Below, one piece after another: positions 10,368-17,725 of a stretch of 52,783 nt of DNA. Numbering within the stretch: the first letter of the stretch is position 1; every line of letters begins with the position of its first letter. Below the pieces are notes generated by a model. The model saw only the letters and a list, made by a program, of their open reading frames with translations, had not been told where the DNA came from and ran no database searches. Origin of the DNA: a virus; the IMG/VR virus record IMGVR_UViG_3300027715_000004, one strand, 5' to 3'. A program made the position numbers and the translations under genes.

Positions 10368-10925
10368 TTAATTATATTTCCATTTATAACCATGATATAT
10401 TAAATTATATTTAATCGCTTTAGACATATTTTTATTTAAATTTTTTATATTCATTTTTCTTTCTGCTTCCATTATACTTTTGTAAATACAAATAACATTA
10501 TTTGTATTTATATCTATTTTAGCAACACTTCTAAGTTCTTTATGTAATCCGATTTCAAATGAATGTTGCATATTTTCTTTATGTGTACACCATTCTAAAT
10601 TTTCTATTCTATTGTCAGTCTTTATACCGTTTATATGATTAACACAAGGTTTATTTTCTGGGTTTGGTATAAACGCTTCTGCTATCAATCTATGTGTTCT
10701 TATCATTTTTATGATTTTTAAATTTGTATTAGTTAATTGTAATTCCCAATATCCTACATTTCCAATATGTTGTTTTATTATTTTTTCATTAATTGTTTTA
10801 TAATATTCTCTTTTATGATATATATCTTTCACAAAAATTTTATTATTTAATCTTTTAACCCTACCTAAATTACTTATTTGATATAATTCCTCATATCCTT
10901 TTATATCTTTCCATATTTCTTCCAT
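10368..10925 (-). CDS. HNH homing endonuclease (NUMOD4 + HNH_3), paralog of 3422..3991
   Basis: [25 protein letters not shown] and [24 protein letters not shown]; the ATG at 10925 has a ggag RBS. Confidence 0.85.
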
Positions 10926-11083
10926 TTTATTTCTCCATCCTGTCATAAAAAAAAGAAATTTATATAAACATTGGGATTATTGTCGAGATAGCACCCAATG
11001 CTTATATAAATTTCTTTAACTACTCGACATATATATTATATCATATTTGTATTGTTTTGTAAAGATATAAATAGAGAGACTAA

Positions 11084-11392
11084 TCAATTACGATTAGCCT
11101 CTTTATATTGTAGAATTATGTTTGTGAATTCGGTATATTCATCAGTTCCGAATTGAAAAATATGTAATTTAGGGTGACATTTAGGACACAATAAAGATCC
11201 GTTGTTGTAATAATCAGAACCACCAGCATAACAAGGTATAACATGATGAAATTGAATTTTTTTACCAACATCAAACCCACAATGAAAACAAATATGTCCA
11301 AATTCTCTAATTAATTGTTCTTTTGTTATACGACAATCAAACCGATTACGAACATGCTTTTTGTTTTTTAATTCATTTCTCATAAGTTCCAT
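11084..11392 (-). CDS. HNH endonuclease
   Basis: CFHCG...HHVIP...CPKCH motif; contains one in-frame CGG (Arg17) that must be read normally. Confidence 0.8.
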   Translation of the reverse strand: MELMRNELKNKKHVRNRFDCRITKEQLIREFGHICFHCGFDVGKKIQFHHVIPCYAGGSDYYNNGSLLCPKCHPKLHIFQFGTDEYTEFTNIILQYKEANRN

Positions 11393-12854: not shown

Positions 12855-13253
12855 TTATTCAAAATATTTTTTAATTTTAAAAGGTTTAGCATCTTTATCT
12901 TCGATAAAACTTTTTGCCATATCAAAATAAAAATCAAATTTATCTAAATCATATTTAACTGCAACTTCGTTTATATCGTTATAATACATATTGCATATAA
13001 GCCAATATTCTATTATTTTATCTTCTTCTATACCTTTGCTAACTAAATATTCTTTAGTAGCTTCAAAAGCCCATTTCATTCCAAAGGGTGTCATTTTATT
13101 TATTAGATCAGTAGCTTCTTCTAAAGTTATAAAATTACTTTTTATACTATTATAAACATCTTCTATAATTTCAGGTGATACTTTTTCATCTAATAATTCT
13201 ACTATGTAATCTTCTTCGTTATCATATTTTTCAAATATTTCTTTTAGTGTCAT
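12855..13253 (-). CDS. Hypothetical acidic protein
   Basis: ORF track. Confidence 0.6.
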   Translation of the reverse strand: MTLKEIFEKYDNEEDYIVELLDEKVSPEIIEDVYNSIKSNFITLEEATDLINKMTPFGMKWAFEATKEYLVSKGIEEDKIIEYWLICNMYYNDINEVAVKYDLDKFDFYFDMAKSFIEDKDAKPFKIKKYFE

Positions 13254-13635
13254 TGTTTCCTACCTCCATTTTCTTTAATTTATTATATTCTTCATCGAAT
13301 TTTTTAAATTCTTCATTAGCCCATTTTTCGAACTCTTTATAATTATTACTAGTTCTAAATTCATTACCATATCTATTTATTAAGAATCCCATAAAAAAGT
13401 CTTGCATTGTATCAGAGTATTTTTTACTTTTAAAAAACTCTTCTTGGGATTGAGAAATCACCACAGGTTGAGGTTGTGGATTTTGCATTTGGTTATACAT
13501 TGCTTGTATATCAGCATATATTTTATTTATATCAGTTGGGGTATTCATAAGTGGTTGTGTTTGATTTGCAATATCATTTTGTATATTACCTATCATATAT
13601 GGACTTTGGTAGGGGTTAGTAAATTTTTTATTCAT
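13231..13635 (-). CDS. Hypothetical Q/N/P-rich protein
   Basis: ORF track. Confidence 0.6.
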   Translation of the reverse strand: MNKKFTNPYQSPYMIGNIQNDIANQTQPLMNTPTDINKIYADIQAMYNQMQNPQPQPVVISQSQEEFFKSKKYSDTMQDFFMGFLINRYGNEFRTSNNYKEFEKWANEEFKKFDEEYNKLKKMEVGNNDTKRNI

Positions 13636-13647
13636 AGTTTTATCTCC

Positions 13648-13956
13648 TTAAATTATAGTTTTTATTGTTTCTAGTACAGCTACATTAGCATTTTTATCGT
13701 TGCCATTTTCAACAACAACACCAGCAAAAGTAGCTACAGAATTTATTTGTGTAATTACATCTTCTGAATTACCTTGACCTGGGTATAAAATGAAGTCATA
13801 ATTTGTATCACTCGGTATATCAGTTATTACATTTGTAGGTTGCCTTTTTACATAAACAGGTACTTTACCTTCATTTTGCAATATTAATCTATCTCTACTG
13901 TTATTTCTTTTAACAAGTATAATAGGAATTTTAGTTACATTTATTGGACTTGCCAT
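13648..13956 (-). CDS. Hypothetical protein
   Basis: ORF track; aaggaggt RBS. Confidence 0.6.
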   Translation of the reverse strand: MASPINVTKIPIILVKRNNSRDRLILQNEGKVPVYVKRQPTNVITDIPSDTNYDFILYPGQGNSEDVITQINSVATFAGVVVENGNDKNANVAVLETIKTII

Positions 13957-14015
13957 AATTATTACCTCCTTTAAAAATAAAGGGCTAGATTATTAAACTA
14001 GCCCACTTTATTTAC

Positions 14016-14759
14016 CTATACTACTACTGGAGTAACAGGTTTTAAATGATTTATTATTGTACTAGCAGTGCTATTTAACATAGCAGTTTGAGCAATAGTT
14101 TGATTTAGTGTATTAACTTGAGATTTAGCATCAGCTAATTGTCCTTCTATATTAGAAAGATTAATAGCATTTATTAATGCTCTTGTTTCTTGACCGTCAT
14201 CGCATATAGCTTTTTCTAATTTACAACAACAGGCAGCGTTTTGAGCAGCCATTGCATTTTGACCAGCTATAATTTGGTTAGTTGCAATTGCATTATCTCT
14301 TCCAACTTCATTAAATCCTTGTAGTGTAGCAGTATTTAATTGATTGAAACTATTTAATTGTTGCAAAGCATTTTGATTGTTTTGAGCAGTTATTTGATTA
14401 CCTAATCCATTAATAGATTGTAAAGTAGTAAAATTACCACTAGCTATTGCAGTTTGTAAATTTCCAGTTCCTTGTAAATATAGGTTACCATTATCTCTAA
14501 TTCCATTATTTATACTTACAATACCAGAACATAGTTCAGATTGTAAAGCATCTATTTGAGAATTAGTTTCAGAATTAGATATTTCAGATTGTATTGTATT
14601 AAGTTGAGATTGTATTCCAGCATCAACACCTCTGTTGACACCAAAACCACCACCAAATACTAATCCAAGAGCAGCGATTTCCCCAATCCAAGATCCATTA
14701 CCAAATCCATTACCATATCCAGCAGTTACTGGCATAGTTGGTACTATTCCATTTTCCAT
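14016..14759 (-). CDS. Gly-rich N-terminus / Q-N-rich repeat protein with CCC motif
   Basis: ORF track; GYGNGFGNGSW...GGGFG then N/Q-rich repeats; AACCCKLEKAIC. Confidence 0.6.
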   Translation of the reverse strand: MENGIVPTMPVTAGYGNGFGNGSWIGEIAALGLVFGGGFGVNRGVDAGIQSQLNTIQSEISNSETNSQIDALQSELCSGIVSINNGIRDNGNLYLQGTGNLQTAIASGNFTTLQSINGLGNQITAQNNQNALQQLNSFNQLNTATLQGFNEVGRDNAIATNQIIAGQNAMAAQNAACCCKLEKAICDDGQETRALINAINLSNIEGQLADAKSQVNTLNQTIAQTAMLNSTASTIINHLKPVTPVVV

Positions 14760-14861
14760 AATAAATTCCTCCTTCTTTCAAATTAGATATATTCTATATC
14801 TATACTTTAATTATATATCTTTTTAATTATATATTTCTACAATGTGTATAGACAATATAAT

Positions 14862-14891
14862 AAAAAAACACAGCCCCCTATTTGGCTGTGT
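14862..14891 (-). terminator. Rho-independent terminator
   Basis: Minus-sense ACACAGCC-loop-GGCTGTGT followed by TTTTTTT. Confidence 0.75.
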
Positions 14892-14988
14892 TAGACATTA
14901 TTATAATTAATAAAATACTATTCATATAAATCACTGTCCCCAATTATATTGTACCATATACAATCAAGTGTTTCTACAATGTGTATAT

Positions 14989-15017
14989 AAAAAATACCAG
15001 TGAAATTAATCACTGGT
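14989..15017 (-). terminator. Rho-independent terminator
   Basis: Minus-sense ACCAGTGA-loop-TCACTGGT followed by ATTTTTT. Confidence 0.7.
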
Positions 15018-15027
15018 ACGACCTATT

Positions 15028-15597
15028 TTAAATTTTGCAATATATTCTTATTGCGAAAGCTATTTTATTTAACTCTTCTGTTATCCTTTGTGTGTCAATA
15101 TCTAATTTATCAGAAATTTCTTGAAATGTTAAATTATCTTTGAATCTGTATTTATATATCATAAAAGTTAAATTATTTTGTTTAGAAATCTTTTGTTCAA
15201 AAGAAATAAGATCATCATTTAATGAATTATATTTGATATAATCAATTATATCAGAATATTTTGTAGAGTTACCTTTCCACATAAAAATATCACACATTTT
15301 ACATTTACCACTTAAAACAAATACATTAAAAATAACAAATAAAATTGCATAACATATATCTATTCTAGTTAATAAATATAAACTAGTAAATATAAGAGAA
15401 CTACAAATAAAACATTTCCACCATTGTTTGTAATGTTTTGGTTTAGGAAAAATCCATCTACAAAAACAAAACATTGAAATTATAATAATTATTTCTTTTA
15501 ATTCTAACTTTAATGCAAAACCTATACAAATTATTAAAATAACTTCTACTATATTATATATAGTATTTAAAATATAAAATTTAACATCTTTTTTCAT
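15028..15597 (-). CDS. Membrane protein with AgrB-like His/Cys motif fused to a sigma-70 region-4/ArpU-like HTH
   Basis: About 4 TM segments; CRWIFPKPKHYKQWWKCFICSS (H-x6-C-x3-S spacing as in AgrB); C-terminal NLTFQEISDKLDIDTQRITEELNKIAFAIRIY. Confidence 0.55.
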   Translation of the reverse strand: MKKDVKFYILNTIYNIVEVILIICIGFALKLELKEIIIIISMFCFCRWIFPKPKHYKQWWKCFICSSLIFTSLYLLTRIDICYAILFVIFNVFVLSGKCKMCDIFMWKGNSTKYSDIIDYIKYNSLNDDLISFEQKISKQNNLTFMIYKYRFKDNLTFQEISDKLDIDTQRITEELNKIAFAIRIYCKI

Positions 15598-15616
15598 AAG
15601 TTATCTCCTTTGAAAA

Positions 15617-15661
15617 TTATTCGCCATCTTCACAGTTGCCAACTAAAAACCAACATATCAT
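15617..15661 (-). CDS. 14-aa peptide ORF MICWFLVGNCEDGE
   Basis: Strong AAAGGAGGTG RBS 7 nt before the ATG; lies between two membrane-protein genes. Confidence 0.35.
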   Translation of the reverse strand: MICWFLVGNCEDGE

Positions 15662-15691
15662 AGCAATACACCTCCTTTACTTATTTAAAAC

Positions 15692-16216
15692 TTATTTATT
15701 TAAAAGTAAAGTTATCGTGTACATTGCATATATAGAAATATTTAACAAAATTATATTAATATTTCTAATAGTAATACTTTTTAATTGTTTTTTATAATTA
15801 TGTCTATCCCATAATAAAATACATTTATTGTATAATTTATTTAATTTATTTCTAAATATAAATAAAAACAATATTAATAAAGATTTACCAACTATAGATG
15901 TTATAACTAAATCTTTAAAAATACAAAATGTAACTGTAATTACAAAAATATAAATTATTGAAGCCCAAGTGAAAATAAAAATATCCATTATATTAGCTTT
16001 TTCTTTGTATAATAATTTCATAATAAAATAAATTAAAAATGTAAAAACTATATTTGCAAATATATTCTTCTGAAATATTATAATTATAGGTATATAACAT
16101 AAACTAAATAATGTAAAAAAAAGTATCTTTTTGTTTTCTATTTGCTTTATCAATATTATAAATAAAACAAAATATATTATATCTGGAATTATTCCAAATA
16201 CTAAATTAAATATCAT
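15692..16216 (-). CDS. Polytopic membrane protein (174 aa)
   Basis: ORF track; about 5-6 hydrophobic segments. Confidence 0.6.
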   Translation of the reverse strand: MIFNLVFGIIPDIIYFVLFIILIKQIENKKILFFTLFSLCYIPIIIIFQKNIFANIVFTFLIYFIMKLLYKEKANIMDIFIFTWASIIYIFVITVTFCIFKDLVITSIVGKSLLILFLFIFRNKLNKLYNKCILLWDRHNYKKQLKSITIRNINIILLNISIYAMYTITLLLNK

Positions 16217-16626
16217 TTTAATGTCTCCTTATAGACCATTTTAATCTCTTCTATTGCTATATCAACCATTGAATTACCACCCATTGCTTTATATTCATCA
16301 TATAACTGAAAAATATGATCAAAATCCAAAAAATGTACTTTTACACCTGGTGTTTTTATTAAAAGTCTAAAGTTTAATATTTCTTGTTTGATTCTGTTTA
16401 TCTCATTTTTATTAATTGTAACTTTACAATCTGTGAGATCAGATTTAACTTCTTTGATACTTTCTTGAGTTTCTTTAATACTTTTCTTAGTATCATCTAA
16501 AAGAAAATTTTTAAACCAAGTAAGCGGTGCTAGTTTTATAGGTAATTTTTCAACTGTAAAACTAATACCTAAAATGCTTAATATTCCTATTATTGTAGCA
16601 ATAGCTGTCATCATCATTTGTACCAC
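16213..16626 (-). CDS. Membrane-anchored protein (N-terminal TM helix)
   Basis: ORF track; overlapping ATGA junction with the next gene. Confidence 0.6.
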   Translation of the reverse strand: MVQMMMTAIATIIGILSILGISFTVEKLPIKLAPLTWFKNFLLDDTKKSIKETQESIKEVKSDLTDCKVTINKNEINRIKQEILNFRLLIKTPGVKVHFLDFDHIFQLYDEYKAMGGNSMVDIAIEEIKMVYKETLK

Positions 16627-16629
16627 CTT

Positions 16630-16914
16630 TTATTTACCTATTTTGCCATCATCAAGCAAATCTTTCACTGTATCAAATAAATATTGTATGTATTTTTCTA
16701 AAAAAACTTTTGGCATTATTATTTTTAAAACTGGATATTTAGTATAAAATTTATCAATTACATAATTAAATTTTTCTATACCTATATCTCTGTATTTTTC
16801 TGCTTCTAAAAATAATACATAAGCAGTTTCTCTAAATTTTTTACCAATTATTAAAGGTACTATTACAATTAAAATCGGTATTACAACACTTATTATAATA
16901 TTTGTTATATCCAC
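16630..16914 (-). CDS. Putative holin (LL-H-like architecture)
   Basis: Single N-terminal TM helix followed by a charged helical domain; sits after the tail fibre genes. Confidence 0.4.
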   Translation of the reverse strand: MDITNIIISVVIPILIVIVPLIIGKKFRETAYVLFLEAEKYRDIGIEKFNYVIDKFYTKYPVLKIIMPKVFLEKYIQYLFDTVKDLLDDGKIGK

Positions 16915-16975
16915 GTAACCATCTCCTTTAATTAAATTATATCACATTAATATATAAATGTAAATACTTGTATTT

Positions 16976-17725
16976 TTACAAGTATACACATTTAGCTTTT
17001 AAAATTGTAGTTCCTGTTGCACTTTTAAATCCTATAGAACTTTGTCCTGCAACACCTGTAACAGCTAATAAATAGAATGGTGTTTTAGTACTAACTTCAA
17101 CAACTTTAGATTTGCTTTGTTTTTCAGTTATAGTCAACGCACCTGTAGCTCCTATTATCCTAGCTAAAGCATTAAAATCAACATCGCTTGTTGAAGTAGA
17201 TGAAGTTGATAAAGTCACTTGACATTGTGCTTGAGTTCCTGAAGCAATAGCACCTTCAGCTATCAAATCGTAACCTAAATCCCATATTCCTGGTCCTAAA
17301 TTAATTTTAAATGATCCTATATTGTAATAAGTTCCTGCTGTCGGATTAGATTGTGCTAATCCAACTGTATCTTTTACTATGATATCCCATTTATTTGGAT
17401 TCATTGGAAATCCAAAAGGAACTTTAAAACTACTATAATAAAAATCAGATATAGCATCAGTTGTTAAAGTATAGTCTGTTCCAAAATGTAGAGTTATAGT
17501 AGTTGAGTTTATAGCCATAACTATTGCGTATTTAGTTGTTATTTGTGTAAATTTAACTTTCATACCAACCGAAATGCTGCCTGTTAAATCAGTACTTGTA
17601 GTGATAACACCACTTACAATAGTGCTATCATAAGAAGAATAGGCAAAAGTTGTACCATTTGCCTTATTCCAACCTTTAAGTAAATATTCTAAATCGTAAA
17701 TTATTGGTGCACTCATATTATCCAC
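16976..17725 (-). CDS. Tail fibre-associated / receptor-binding candidate
   Basis: ORF track; position downstream of the tail fibre; S/T/G-rich beta-like sequence. Confidence 0.55.
   Translation of the reverse strand: MDNMSAPIIYDLEYLLKGWNKANGTTFAYSSYDSTIVSGVITTSTDLTGSISVGMKVKFTQITTKYAIVMAINSTTITLHFGTDYTLTTDAISDFYYSSFKVPFGFPMNPNKWDIIVKDTVGLAQSNPTAGTYYNIGSFKINLGPGIWDLGYDLIAEGAIASGTQAQCQVTLSTSSTSTSDVDFNALARIIGATGALTITEKQSKSKVVEVSTKTPFYLLAVTGVAGQSSIGFKSATGTTILKAKCVYL

Follow-up and report, generated by a model that had tools for sequence, protein, structure and literature searches.

The window analysed here, the whole 52,783-nt stretch of IMG/VR virus record IMGVR_UViG_3300027715_000004, belongs to an uncultivated, Clostridia-type tailed phage with a G+C content of 26.5%, whose gene set includes tape-measure, tail, small-terminase and amidase endolysin genes. 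After the tail genes and before the amidase endolysin gene a module of three genes is located, which lies on the minus strand together with the late genes. It consists of a gene for a polytopic membrane protein, here named MemX, a 14-codon open reading frame (ORF), and a gene for a 189-amino-acid (aa) protein in which a membrane domain related to the peptidase AgrB is fused to a helix-turn-helix (HTH) domain. A first-pass annotation of the window had pointed to this arrangement as a possible peptide-signalling module. The features of the module are as follows:

15692..16216, minus strand: MemX (174 aa), polytopic in the membrane, orphan family; its gene immediately precedes the peptide ORF
15669..15678, minus strand: Shine-Dalgarno sequence AAAGGAGGTG of the peptide ORF, 7 nt 5′ of the ATG, with equivalents in all related loci
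15617..15661, minus strand: peptide ORF MICWFLVGNCEDGE of 14 codons, putative leaderless AgrD-like precursor
15028..15597, minus strand: 189-aa fusion protein, AgrB catalytic half and sigma-70 region-4-like HTH as assigned from profile matches and AlphaFold2
15310..15585, minus strand: AgrB-like four-helix membrane domain of the fusion protein, residues 5-96, corresponding to Pfam AgrB profile positions 22-115 of 185
15040..15216, minus strand: predicted cytoplasmic helical domain with the region-4-like HTH, residues ~128-186, recognition-helix segment DTQRITEEL

Related loci were collected from 41 IMG/VR viral loci, 10 contigs of metagenome-assembled genomes and several contigs encoding close homologues. 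The metagenome-assembled contigs have been assigned to Candidatus Scatovivens, Lachnospiraceae and other Clostridia, and one homologue of MemX to Romboutsia timonensis. The 52 loci with an intact fusion gene formed the base for counting the peptide ORF, and 71 diverse members with a mean column identity of 22% were used for the alignment of the fusion protein. An exhaustive HMMER search with the fusion protein yielded at least 140 cluster representatives at E≤0.001 (clusters at 50% identity). Since most full-length representatives have a length of ~185-215 aa and match over both halves, the fusion is the standard architecture of the family. MemX, the peptide ORF and the fusion gene are co-inherited as an obligate set. 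The carrier phages, which are phages of anaerobic Firmicutes, stem from gut, rumen, wetland and subsurface samples, and DNA of the window itself was detected in one subsurface and one freshwater metagenome run. The module was not found in cultured phages (INPHARED; DNA search of 14700-17000 and two protein searches), and searches of the full-text literature found neither AgrB-HTH fusions nor leaderless peptides of the AgrD type described. In three viral contigs (L043, L044 and L045) a frameshift divides the fusion gene between two reading frames (~5001-5571 in L043 and L045). MemX is intact in L043 and distributed over two frames in L045, and in L044 it lies outside the contig; the frameshifts may be due to assembly error or to decay of the module.

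As judged from profile and fold comparisons, the catalytic half of AgrB has a homologue in the membrane domain of the fusion protein. Missing similarity to the AgrB profile had been named beforehand as an outcome that would refute the relationship, and the similarity was found: the window protein matches Pfam AgrB (PF04647) over residues 5-96 (E 7.3e-5, 22.6 bits with a cut-off of 23), and matches at E≤0.01 were obtained for 37 of 71 relatives, the best having an E-value of 5e-10. When the family profile was compared by hhalign with the annotated AgrB of phage phiCDHM1, the probability was 82.7% (E 9.4e-6), with Arg, His and Cys aligned. The best viral fold match in BFVD was A0A8S5R960, a protein named Accessory gene regulator B; with 429 aa it is about twice as long as a normal AgrB, which suggests that further unusual AgrB fusions may exist in uncultivated viruses. 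A solved AgrB structure for comparison was found neither among PDB chain sequences by profile search nor among solved structures by Foldseek.

The motif of the putative active site, CRWIFPKPKHYKQWWKCFICSS, reads R47-x7-H55-x6-C62-x3-S66, with the codons of Arg47 at 15459..15457, His55 at 15435..15433 and Cys62 at 15414..15412. The H-x6-C spacing given in the first-pass annotation thus holds, whereas its R-x8-H has to be corrected by one residue. The catalytic dyad of staphylococcal AgrB, His77/Cys84, is invariant and has the same spacing (PMC10482373). In the alignment of 71 members His55 and Cys62 are the sole invariant columns, so that the motif is conserved in homologues, and both residues are aligned with the His and Cys of phiCDHM1 AgrB. 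A lack of such conservation, the second refuting outcome named beforehand, was thus not observed. The AlphaFold2 model of the protein (predicted local distance difference test score, pLDDT, 94.9) displays four N-terminal membrane helices followed by a soluble helical domain. From the charge distribution we infer that the N-terminus, the His/Cys loop and the C-terminal domain are on the cytoplasmic side, where the termini and the active site of AgrB are also located (PMC10482373). Compared to a full-length AgrB with six helices, only profile positions 22-115 of 185 were matched and only four helices are present.

The assignment of the C-terminus to a sigma-70 region-4/ArpU-like HTH, likewise proposed in the first-pass annotation, is supported at the family level. 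Matches to Sigma70_r4 or r4_2 were obtained for 9 of 71 relatives at E≤0.01 (best 9.2e-7) and matches to DUF1492 for two relatives. Foldseek placed the ~60 C-terminal residues on solved sigma region-4 domains with a target-normalised TM-score (TMt) of 0.6-0.79, a root-mean-square deviation of 1.9-2.6 Å and E-values above 0.1, and similar fold matches were observed with viral sigma-like proteins. Due to the fact that no match to sigma region 2 was found, the soluble part comprising merely ~90 residues, the fusion protein is not a sigma factor.

The small ORF extends from an ATG at 15661..15659 to a TAA stop at 15619..15617. The claim that a 14-codon ORF with a strong ribosome binding site lies between a polytopic membrane protein and a four-helix protein was confirmed, and this arrangement is general: in 50 of the 52 loci the short gap before the fusion gene is occupied by a 13-19-codon ORF, which a strong Shine-Dalgarno sequence precedes. 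The peptides, of which 40 distinct sequences were found, are too short for scans with hidden Markov models, and no signal sequence was found in the peptide. Their common pattern comprises Met, 0-6 variable residues, usually Trp together with Asp/Asn, then Ser, 4-5 aromatic or aliphatic residues, Asp/Ser/Asn, one free residue and the tail (E/K)(D/E)GE. At position -12 from the C-terminus Ser is present in 35 of 40 peptides and Cys in one, that of the window, the other four being offset by one residue; positions -11 to -8 are rich in W/F/L/I, the penultimate residue is Gly in 39/40 and the last residue is Glu in 40/40. Accordingly placed, Cys3 of the window peptide occupies the Ser/Cys position of the family, seven residues ahead of the C-terminal EDGE. 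Only 2-7 residues precede the Ser/Cys in all 40 peptides, and an amphipathic leader of ~20-25 residues is present in none of them; the lack of the long AgrD leader, noticed before in the window peptide, is therefore the rule in the family. The acidic tail has a length of 6-7 residues, compared to ~14 for the recognition tail of AgrD. In size (2-7 residues, Ser/Cys, aromatic core) the peptides correspond to an autoinducing peptide (AIP).

Within the clade of the window the pattern is M-[IN]-C-W-F-[LI]-[VIF]-G-N-C-E-x-G-E. Close relatives show synonymous differences at the conserved Cys3, Gly8, Asn9, Cys10 and Gly13, and between the peptide ORFs of the window and of locus L001 the only differences are the stop codon and three codons with synonymous changes. 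This pattern of conservation indicates that the small ORF is a conserved coding gene and not a chance ORF. In 28 of 41 distinct loci the peptide stop is at most ~6 nt away from the ATG of the fusion gene (in L053 it overlaps the ATG), and in these loci the codons GAT GGA GAR supply the GGAG ribosome binding site of the fusion gene, which points to translational coupling of precursor and enzyme. The remaining 13 loci have a gap of 12-31 nt and a separate ribosome binding site, and the tail is EDGE or EEGE in all 13. The window is one of them: 19 nt separate the peptide stop from the fusion gene, which has its own AAGGAG, and the Gly of the tail is encoded by GGC. A ribosome binding site constraint as the only cause of the DGE tail was considered and rejected, because it explains the bias towards GGA in the 28 short-gap loci but fails for the 13 long-gap loci.

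MemX is an obligate third component of the module, a point that goes beyond the first-pass annotation. All 39 unique upstream proteins are homologous to each other, and by tblastn MemX was recovered in six further loci where it had been missed by ORF calling (in L042 only its C-terminal part at the contig end). It is thus present in every locus with upstream sequence, always directly before the peptide ORF and with a length of ~180 aa. A profile search retrieved 873 clusters (90% identity), all of them unnamed, and no relatives were found in Pfam, NCBIfam, PDB (by sequence) or with Foldseek (by fold). AlphaFold2 predicted seven helices with a pLDDT of 83.6 (about six to seven overall), and the conserved charged motifs are K-x-x-KEKR, LYKEK-x-QITD, WNRN and KSTTFR. 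The possibilities that MemX is the missing half of AgrB or an AgrC-like sensor found no support, hhalign giving probabilities of 0.5% with phiCDHM1 AgrB and 0.1% with its AgrC. Across 39 loci the identity of the peptide ring region is correlated best with that of MemX (Spearman 0.62); in a joint rank regression on peptide ring identity MemX alone retained weight (standardised beta 0.65; AgrB domain -0.08, HTH 0.06). Such covariation would be the pattern expected of a receptor or exporter that reads the peptide, for which it is weak evidence.

A candidate operator downstream of the fusion gene is a second addition to the first-pass annotation. Every locus has a non-coding gap of 82-458 bp 3′ of the fusion gene. 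In the gaps that were read, a terminator composed of a hairpin and a T run comes first, followed by a motif 18-22 nt upstream of a TATAAT-like hexamer. This motif is an 11-bp inverted repeat, T-A-(G/C)-(T/A)-C-N-G-(A/T)-(C/G)-T-A, and since it is followed by GAAAT or overlaps CTGACA, it covers the -35 region. The arm positions are complementary in 97 of 120 pairs, compared to 77.8±3.2 in column shuffles, none of 2000 of which reached 97, and to 10-34 in shifted registers; compensatory G:C/C:G and T:A/A:T changes were observed at the arm pairs 3/9 and 4/8. The box of each locus was found nowhere else in its ~10 kb, and the whole window contains two copies, both of them here. In loci with TACAC/GTGTA arms (the window, L001, L006, L033 and L047, which form the five of the motif set, plus L063) the recognition helix begins with T-[QN]-R-I-T-E, while the loci with TAGTC/GACTA arms mostly have N-P-R-I-V-E or close variants. 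The features 3′ of the fusion gene in the window are:

14994..15019, minus strand: intrinsic-terminator-like hairpin with T run, directly 3′ of the fusion gene
14971..14987, minus strand: box 1, TATACACATTGTAGAAA, an imperfect palindrome TACA-CAT-TGTA over the -35 of the promoter-like site TAGAAA-17-TACAAT at 14976..14948
14867..14925, minus strand: short unit between the boxes with the 15-codon hydrophobic ORF MNSILLIIIMSNTAK at 14925..14878 and a second terminator at 14892..14867
14834..14850, minus strand: box 2, with TATACACATTGTAGAAA repeated exactly, over the -35 of a further promoter-like site (TAGAAA-18-TATAAT, 14839..14810) ahead of the following operon
14016..14759, minus strand: 247-aa Gly/Gln/Cys-rich protein (phrog_9288), first gene of the downstream operon and presumed target of the box promoter

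The exact duplication of the 17-bp box is limited to the clade of the window (the window, L001, L061/62 and L064). As a feature of the family it was ruled out, because the other loci carry a single box. The inter-box unit of ~80 nt (14867-14990, minus strand), composed of a promoter-like site, the ORF and the second terminator, is kept together with the duplication in L001, L061/62 and L064, where the ORFs are MNNVLLVILNV, MNNVLLIIIMSNTAK and MNNILLVILSTKHS. This unit may be a small output of the box promoter, as an RNA, transcript or peptide. No meaningful match to Rfam was found in 14600-15800.

The operon behind the box (12855-14759 on the minus strand of the window; downstream ORFs d1-d6 in L040 and L036) is conserved across the family and matches only PHROGs of unknown function. 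It encodes a Gly/Gln/Cys-rich protein of 250-310 aa that contains a hydrophobic segment and, at the C-terminus, a Cys-Gly run, a ~155-aa protein that is beta-rich, low-complexity acidic/Tyr-rich (Tyr/Arg/Asp) proteins and a DUF7841 protein. The amidase endolysin gene of the window follows further downstream, past a non-coding gap of ~340 bp. In L040-type phages the operon continues into the major head protein gene, and in L058-L060 the holin is 8 kb away from the module; both observations argue that the module is not specifically a lysis device.

Taken together, the sequence evidence makes it rather probable that the module is a phage-borne, minimal Agr-type cyclic-peptide system composed of MemX, a leaderless mini-AgrD and a fusion of the N-terminal part of AgrB with an HTH, in which the processing enzyme is itself the transcription regulator. 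The AgrB-like domain, with its active site on the cytoplasmic face, would bind the hydrophobic precursor of 13-19 residues, cut off the acidic C-terminal tail of 6-7 residues and close a lactone via the conserved Ser. In the clade of the window Cys3 would give rise to a thiolactone, roughly fMet-Ile-cyclo(Cys-Trp-Phe-Leu-Val), with a ring that is possibly one residue longer. A leader peptidase would not be needed, since the ORF encodes only the AIP part and the tail. MemX, whose divergence tracks that of the peptide, would export or sense the product. The fused HTH is predicted to bind the palindrome as a dimer and, depending on the state of the peptide or of the enzyme, to control the transcription of the conserved late operon next to it, so that the enzyme, being the regulator, would stand in for both AgrC and AgrA.

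Several observations weigh against this interpretation and have to be set beside it. The window protein falls 0.4 bits short of the Pfam AgrB cut-off, and due to the lack of profile positions 116-185, which correspond to about two membrane helices, catalytic competence is an assumption. Staphylococcus aureus AgrB requires a substrate with an amphipathic leader and a long tail (PMC10482373), and the peptides described here have neither of them. Regarding the HTH, the Sigma70_r4 match of the window protein has an E-value of merely 0.086, and none of the Foldseek E-values mentioned above is below 0.1. The covariation of box and HTH may go back to a small number of evolutionary events, as the TACAC loci nearly form a single clade, and the correlation of peptide and MemX loses weight since the loci share descent and MemX is the fastest-evolving protein. 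Moreover, the three metatranscriptome runs of the source study had zero coverage of the window phage.

The main one among the other explanations makes the AgrB-like domain a receptor instead of a maker of the peptide. The fusion protein would then be a late-gene regulator tethered to the membrane, whose AgrB-like domain binds the peptide, linear or produced elsewhere, or is reversibly acylated by it and thereby switches the HTH, while MemX or an enzyme of the host takes over processing or export. In line with a receptor, the domain comprises only half of the AgrB fold, the combination of sensor and HTH follows the usual one-component logic, and a site immediately before a dedicated promoter is typical of a regulator; the reportedly reversible AgrB reaction in vitro can be added here. 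However, the strict invariance of exactly the catalytic His and Cys argues for chemistry and not for binding alone, the module encodes no further peptidase, and MemX is devoid of a recognisable catalytic motif, so that a pure receptor appears unlikely, if by no means far-fetched. The signal-producing enzyme that is also the regulator could furthermore be extended to phage-to-phage communication, with one protein acting as both signal synthase and covalent receptor. The exported ring would re-enter the membranes of other infected cells and re-acylate Cys62, and the acyl-enzyme would switch the HTH; MemX would be the exporter or a specificity filter for the hydrophobic lactone or thiolactone. 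By this means the density of infected cells would set the expression of late genes (head, accessory and lysis genes) in the absence of a kinase. This extension is regarded as improbable on present evidence.

Explanations that dispense with peptide chemistry altogether have to account for the conservation described above. The small ORF could be a translational device only, which couples or gates the translation of the fusion gene and whose peptide has no function of its own. The 28 of 41 loci in which the stop is at most ~6 nt from the ATG and the codons GAT GGA GAR provide the GGAG of the fusion gene agree with such a device, but the EDGE tail is kept in 13 of 13 long-gap loci with a separate ribosome binding site, and at a distance from the stop the Ser/Cys and the aromatic core show amino acid conservation with synonymous variation; it is therefore considered highly improbable. 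A membrane complex for lysis control or superinfection exclusion, with MemX and the four-helix protein being holin/antiholin-like or exclusion proteins and the likeness to AgrB and HTH being incidental, would fit the position of the unit in the window between tail genes and amidase endolysin, the adjacent XhlA-family gene in relatives and the weak match of one MemX homologue to SieB (E 0.012). The link to lysis genes is not general, however, as seen from the distant holin in L058-L060 and the operon running into the major head gene in L040-type phages, and the invariant His/Cys, the conserved peptide and the palindromic box would be left unexplained, which makes this a quite improbable alternative to the minimal Agr-type module.

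Upstream of MemX the following features were annotated in the window:

16936..16964, minus strand: sigma-70-type promoter-like site TTTACA-17-TATAAT with extended TG, 11/12 by consensus scan only, upstream of the 94-aa gene
16630..16914, minus strand: 94-aa small membrane protein (phrog_15303, function unknown), first gene past the promoter-like site
16213..16626, minus strand: 137-aa protein with a hydrophobic N-terminal stretch and otherwise helical, its stop overlapping the MemX start codon

Because the promoter-like site is close to the consensus, the five-gene unit that ends in the fusion gene may be transcribed by the host polymerase on its own and not only together with the tail operon. 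In relatives an XhlA-family gene takes the place of the 137-aa gene. Elsewhere in the window, two HNH homing-endonuclease genes (192 aa with NUMOD4 and HNH_3; 102 aa with HNH) at 10368-11392 on the minus strand immediately follow the amidase endolysin gene, and the early region at 48137-52111 on the plus strand encodes a VapE-like primase/helicase-associated protein and an RtcB RNA ligase, the latter of which suggests repair of tRNA or RNA cleavage inflicted by the host. No integrase was found among the larger ORFs of the window that were scanned.

Agr signalling has so far comprised an enzyme, a leader-bearing precursor, a kinase and a response regulator. The present family suggests that Agr chemistry is feasible with an ORF of 13-19 residues and half an AgrB, the output being wired straight to DNA. 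If this is true, the module would be the most compact genetically encoded pathway to cyclic (thio)lactone peptides and a second, unrelated kind of phage peptide signalling beside arbitrium, and it would give a handle on the timing of the late operon in many uncultivated phages of anaerobic Firmicutes. Additionally, the 40 peptide variants, the switch from Ser to Cys and the several specificity classes of operator and HTH represent natural variation from which substrate rules of AgrB could be derived.

With the agr system (AgrB-AgrD-AgrC-AgrA) the module has in common a membrane cysteine-peptidase domain with His-x6-Cys and an upstream Arg, as well as an adjacent small precursor gene encoding Cys/Ser, then hydrophobic residues and an acidic tail, with a predicted product of AIP size. 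It differs in having four helices, the N-terminal half, instead of the six of AgrB, and a leaderless precursor of 13-19 residues with a tail of 6-7 residues instead of an AgrD with leader and ~14-residue tail. An AgrC kinase and an AgrA LytTR regulator are lacking, the DNA-binding domain is part of the enzyme, and the unrelated MemX is obligate; no kinase was seen among the neighbouring genes of the inspected loci, and MemX and the fusion protein are the only polytopic proteins on the coding strands of the window. A phage-borne comparison is phiCDHM1 of Clostridioides difficile, which carries agrB, agrD and agrC (PMC3901668). There, too, Agr-type genes are present in a phage of a clostridial host and AgrD uses Ser in its core (TTSVWYINQPK), but phiCDHM1 encodes a full-length AgrB of 197 aa, a leader-bearing AgrD of 37 aa and an AgrC of 453 aa, and the genes are located in the lysogeny region on the opposite strand, an architecture with which the family described here has nothing in common. 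Lactones formed via Ser are also represented by GBAP of Enterococcus faecalis, which is produced by FsrB/FsrD. The AIP of Staphylococcus intermedius is a lactone as well (PMC10482373). A Ser-based lactone of this kind is the likely chemistry for 35 of the 40 family peptides, although in both the Fsr and the S. intermedius systems the AgrB-type enzyme is complete, the precursor carries a leader and the receptor is of the two-component type.

On the output side the module resembles the late activators of the ArpU/RinA type, in which a small region-4-like HTH protein is encoded immediately upstream of the late-operon promoter. ArpU and RinA are soluble late-gene activators, whereas the HTH described here is joined to a four-helix membrane domain and the candidate site is palindromic. 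ToxR, CadC and BcrR are membrane-bound one-component regulators which, like the fusion protein, have a tethered DNA-binding domain and function in the absence of a phosphorelay; they have other folds and HTH types, and none of them is known to possess an enzymatic domain for the synthesis or cleavage of a peptide signal. Arbitrium (AimP/AimR) is similar insofar as a short phage peptide is combined with a phage DNA-binding protein, but AimP is secreted, linear and imported by Opp, AimR is a soluble TPR receptor, and there is neither homology nor a common architecture; in profile scans no protein of the module matched a TPR or RRNPP family. The module thus appears to be Agr-like at the enzyme-substrate step, while at the output step it would resemble a membrane-tethered one-component regulator or a late-gene activator.

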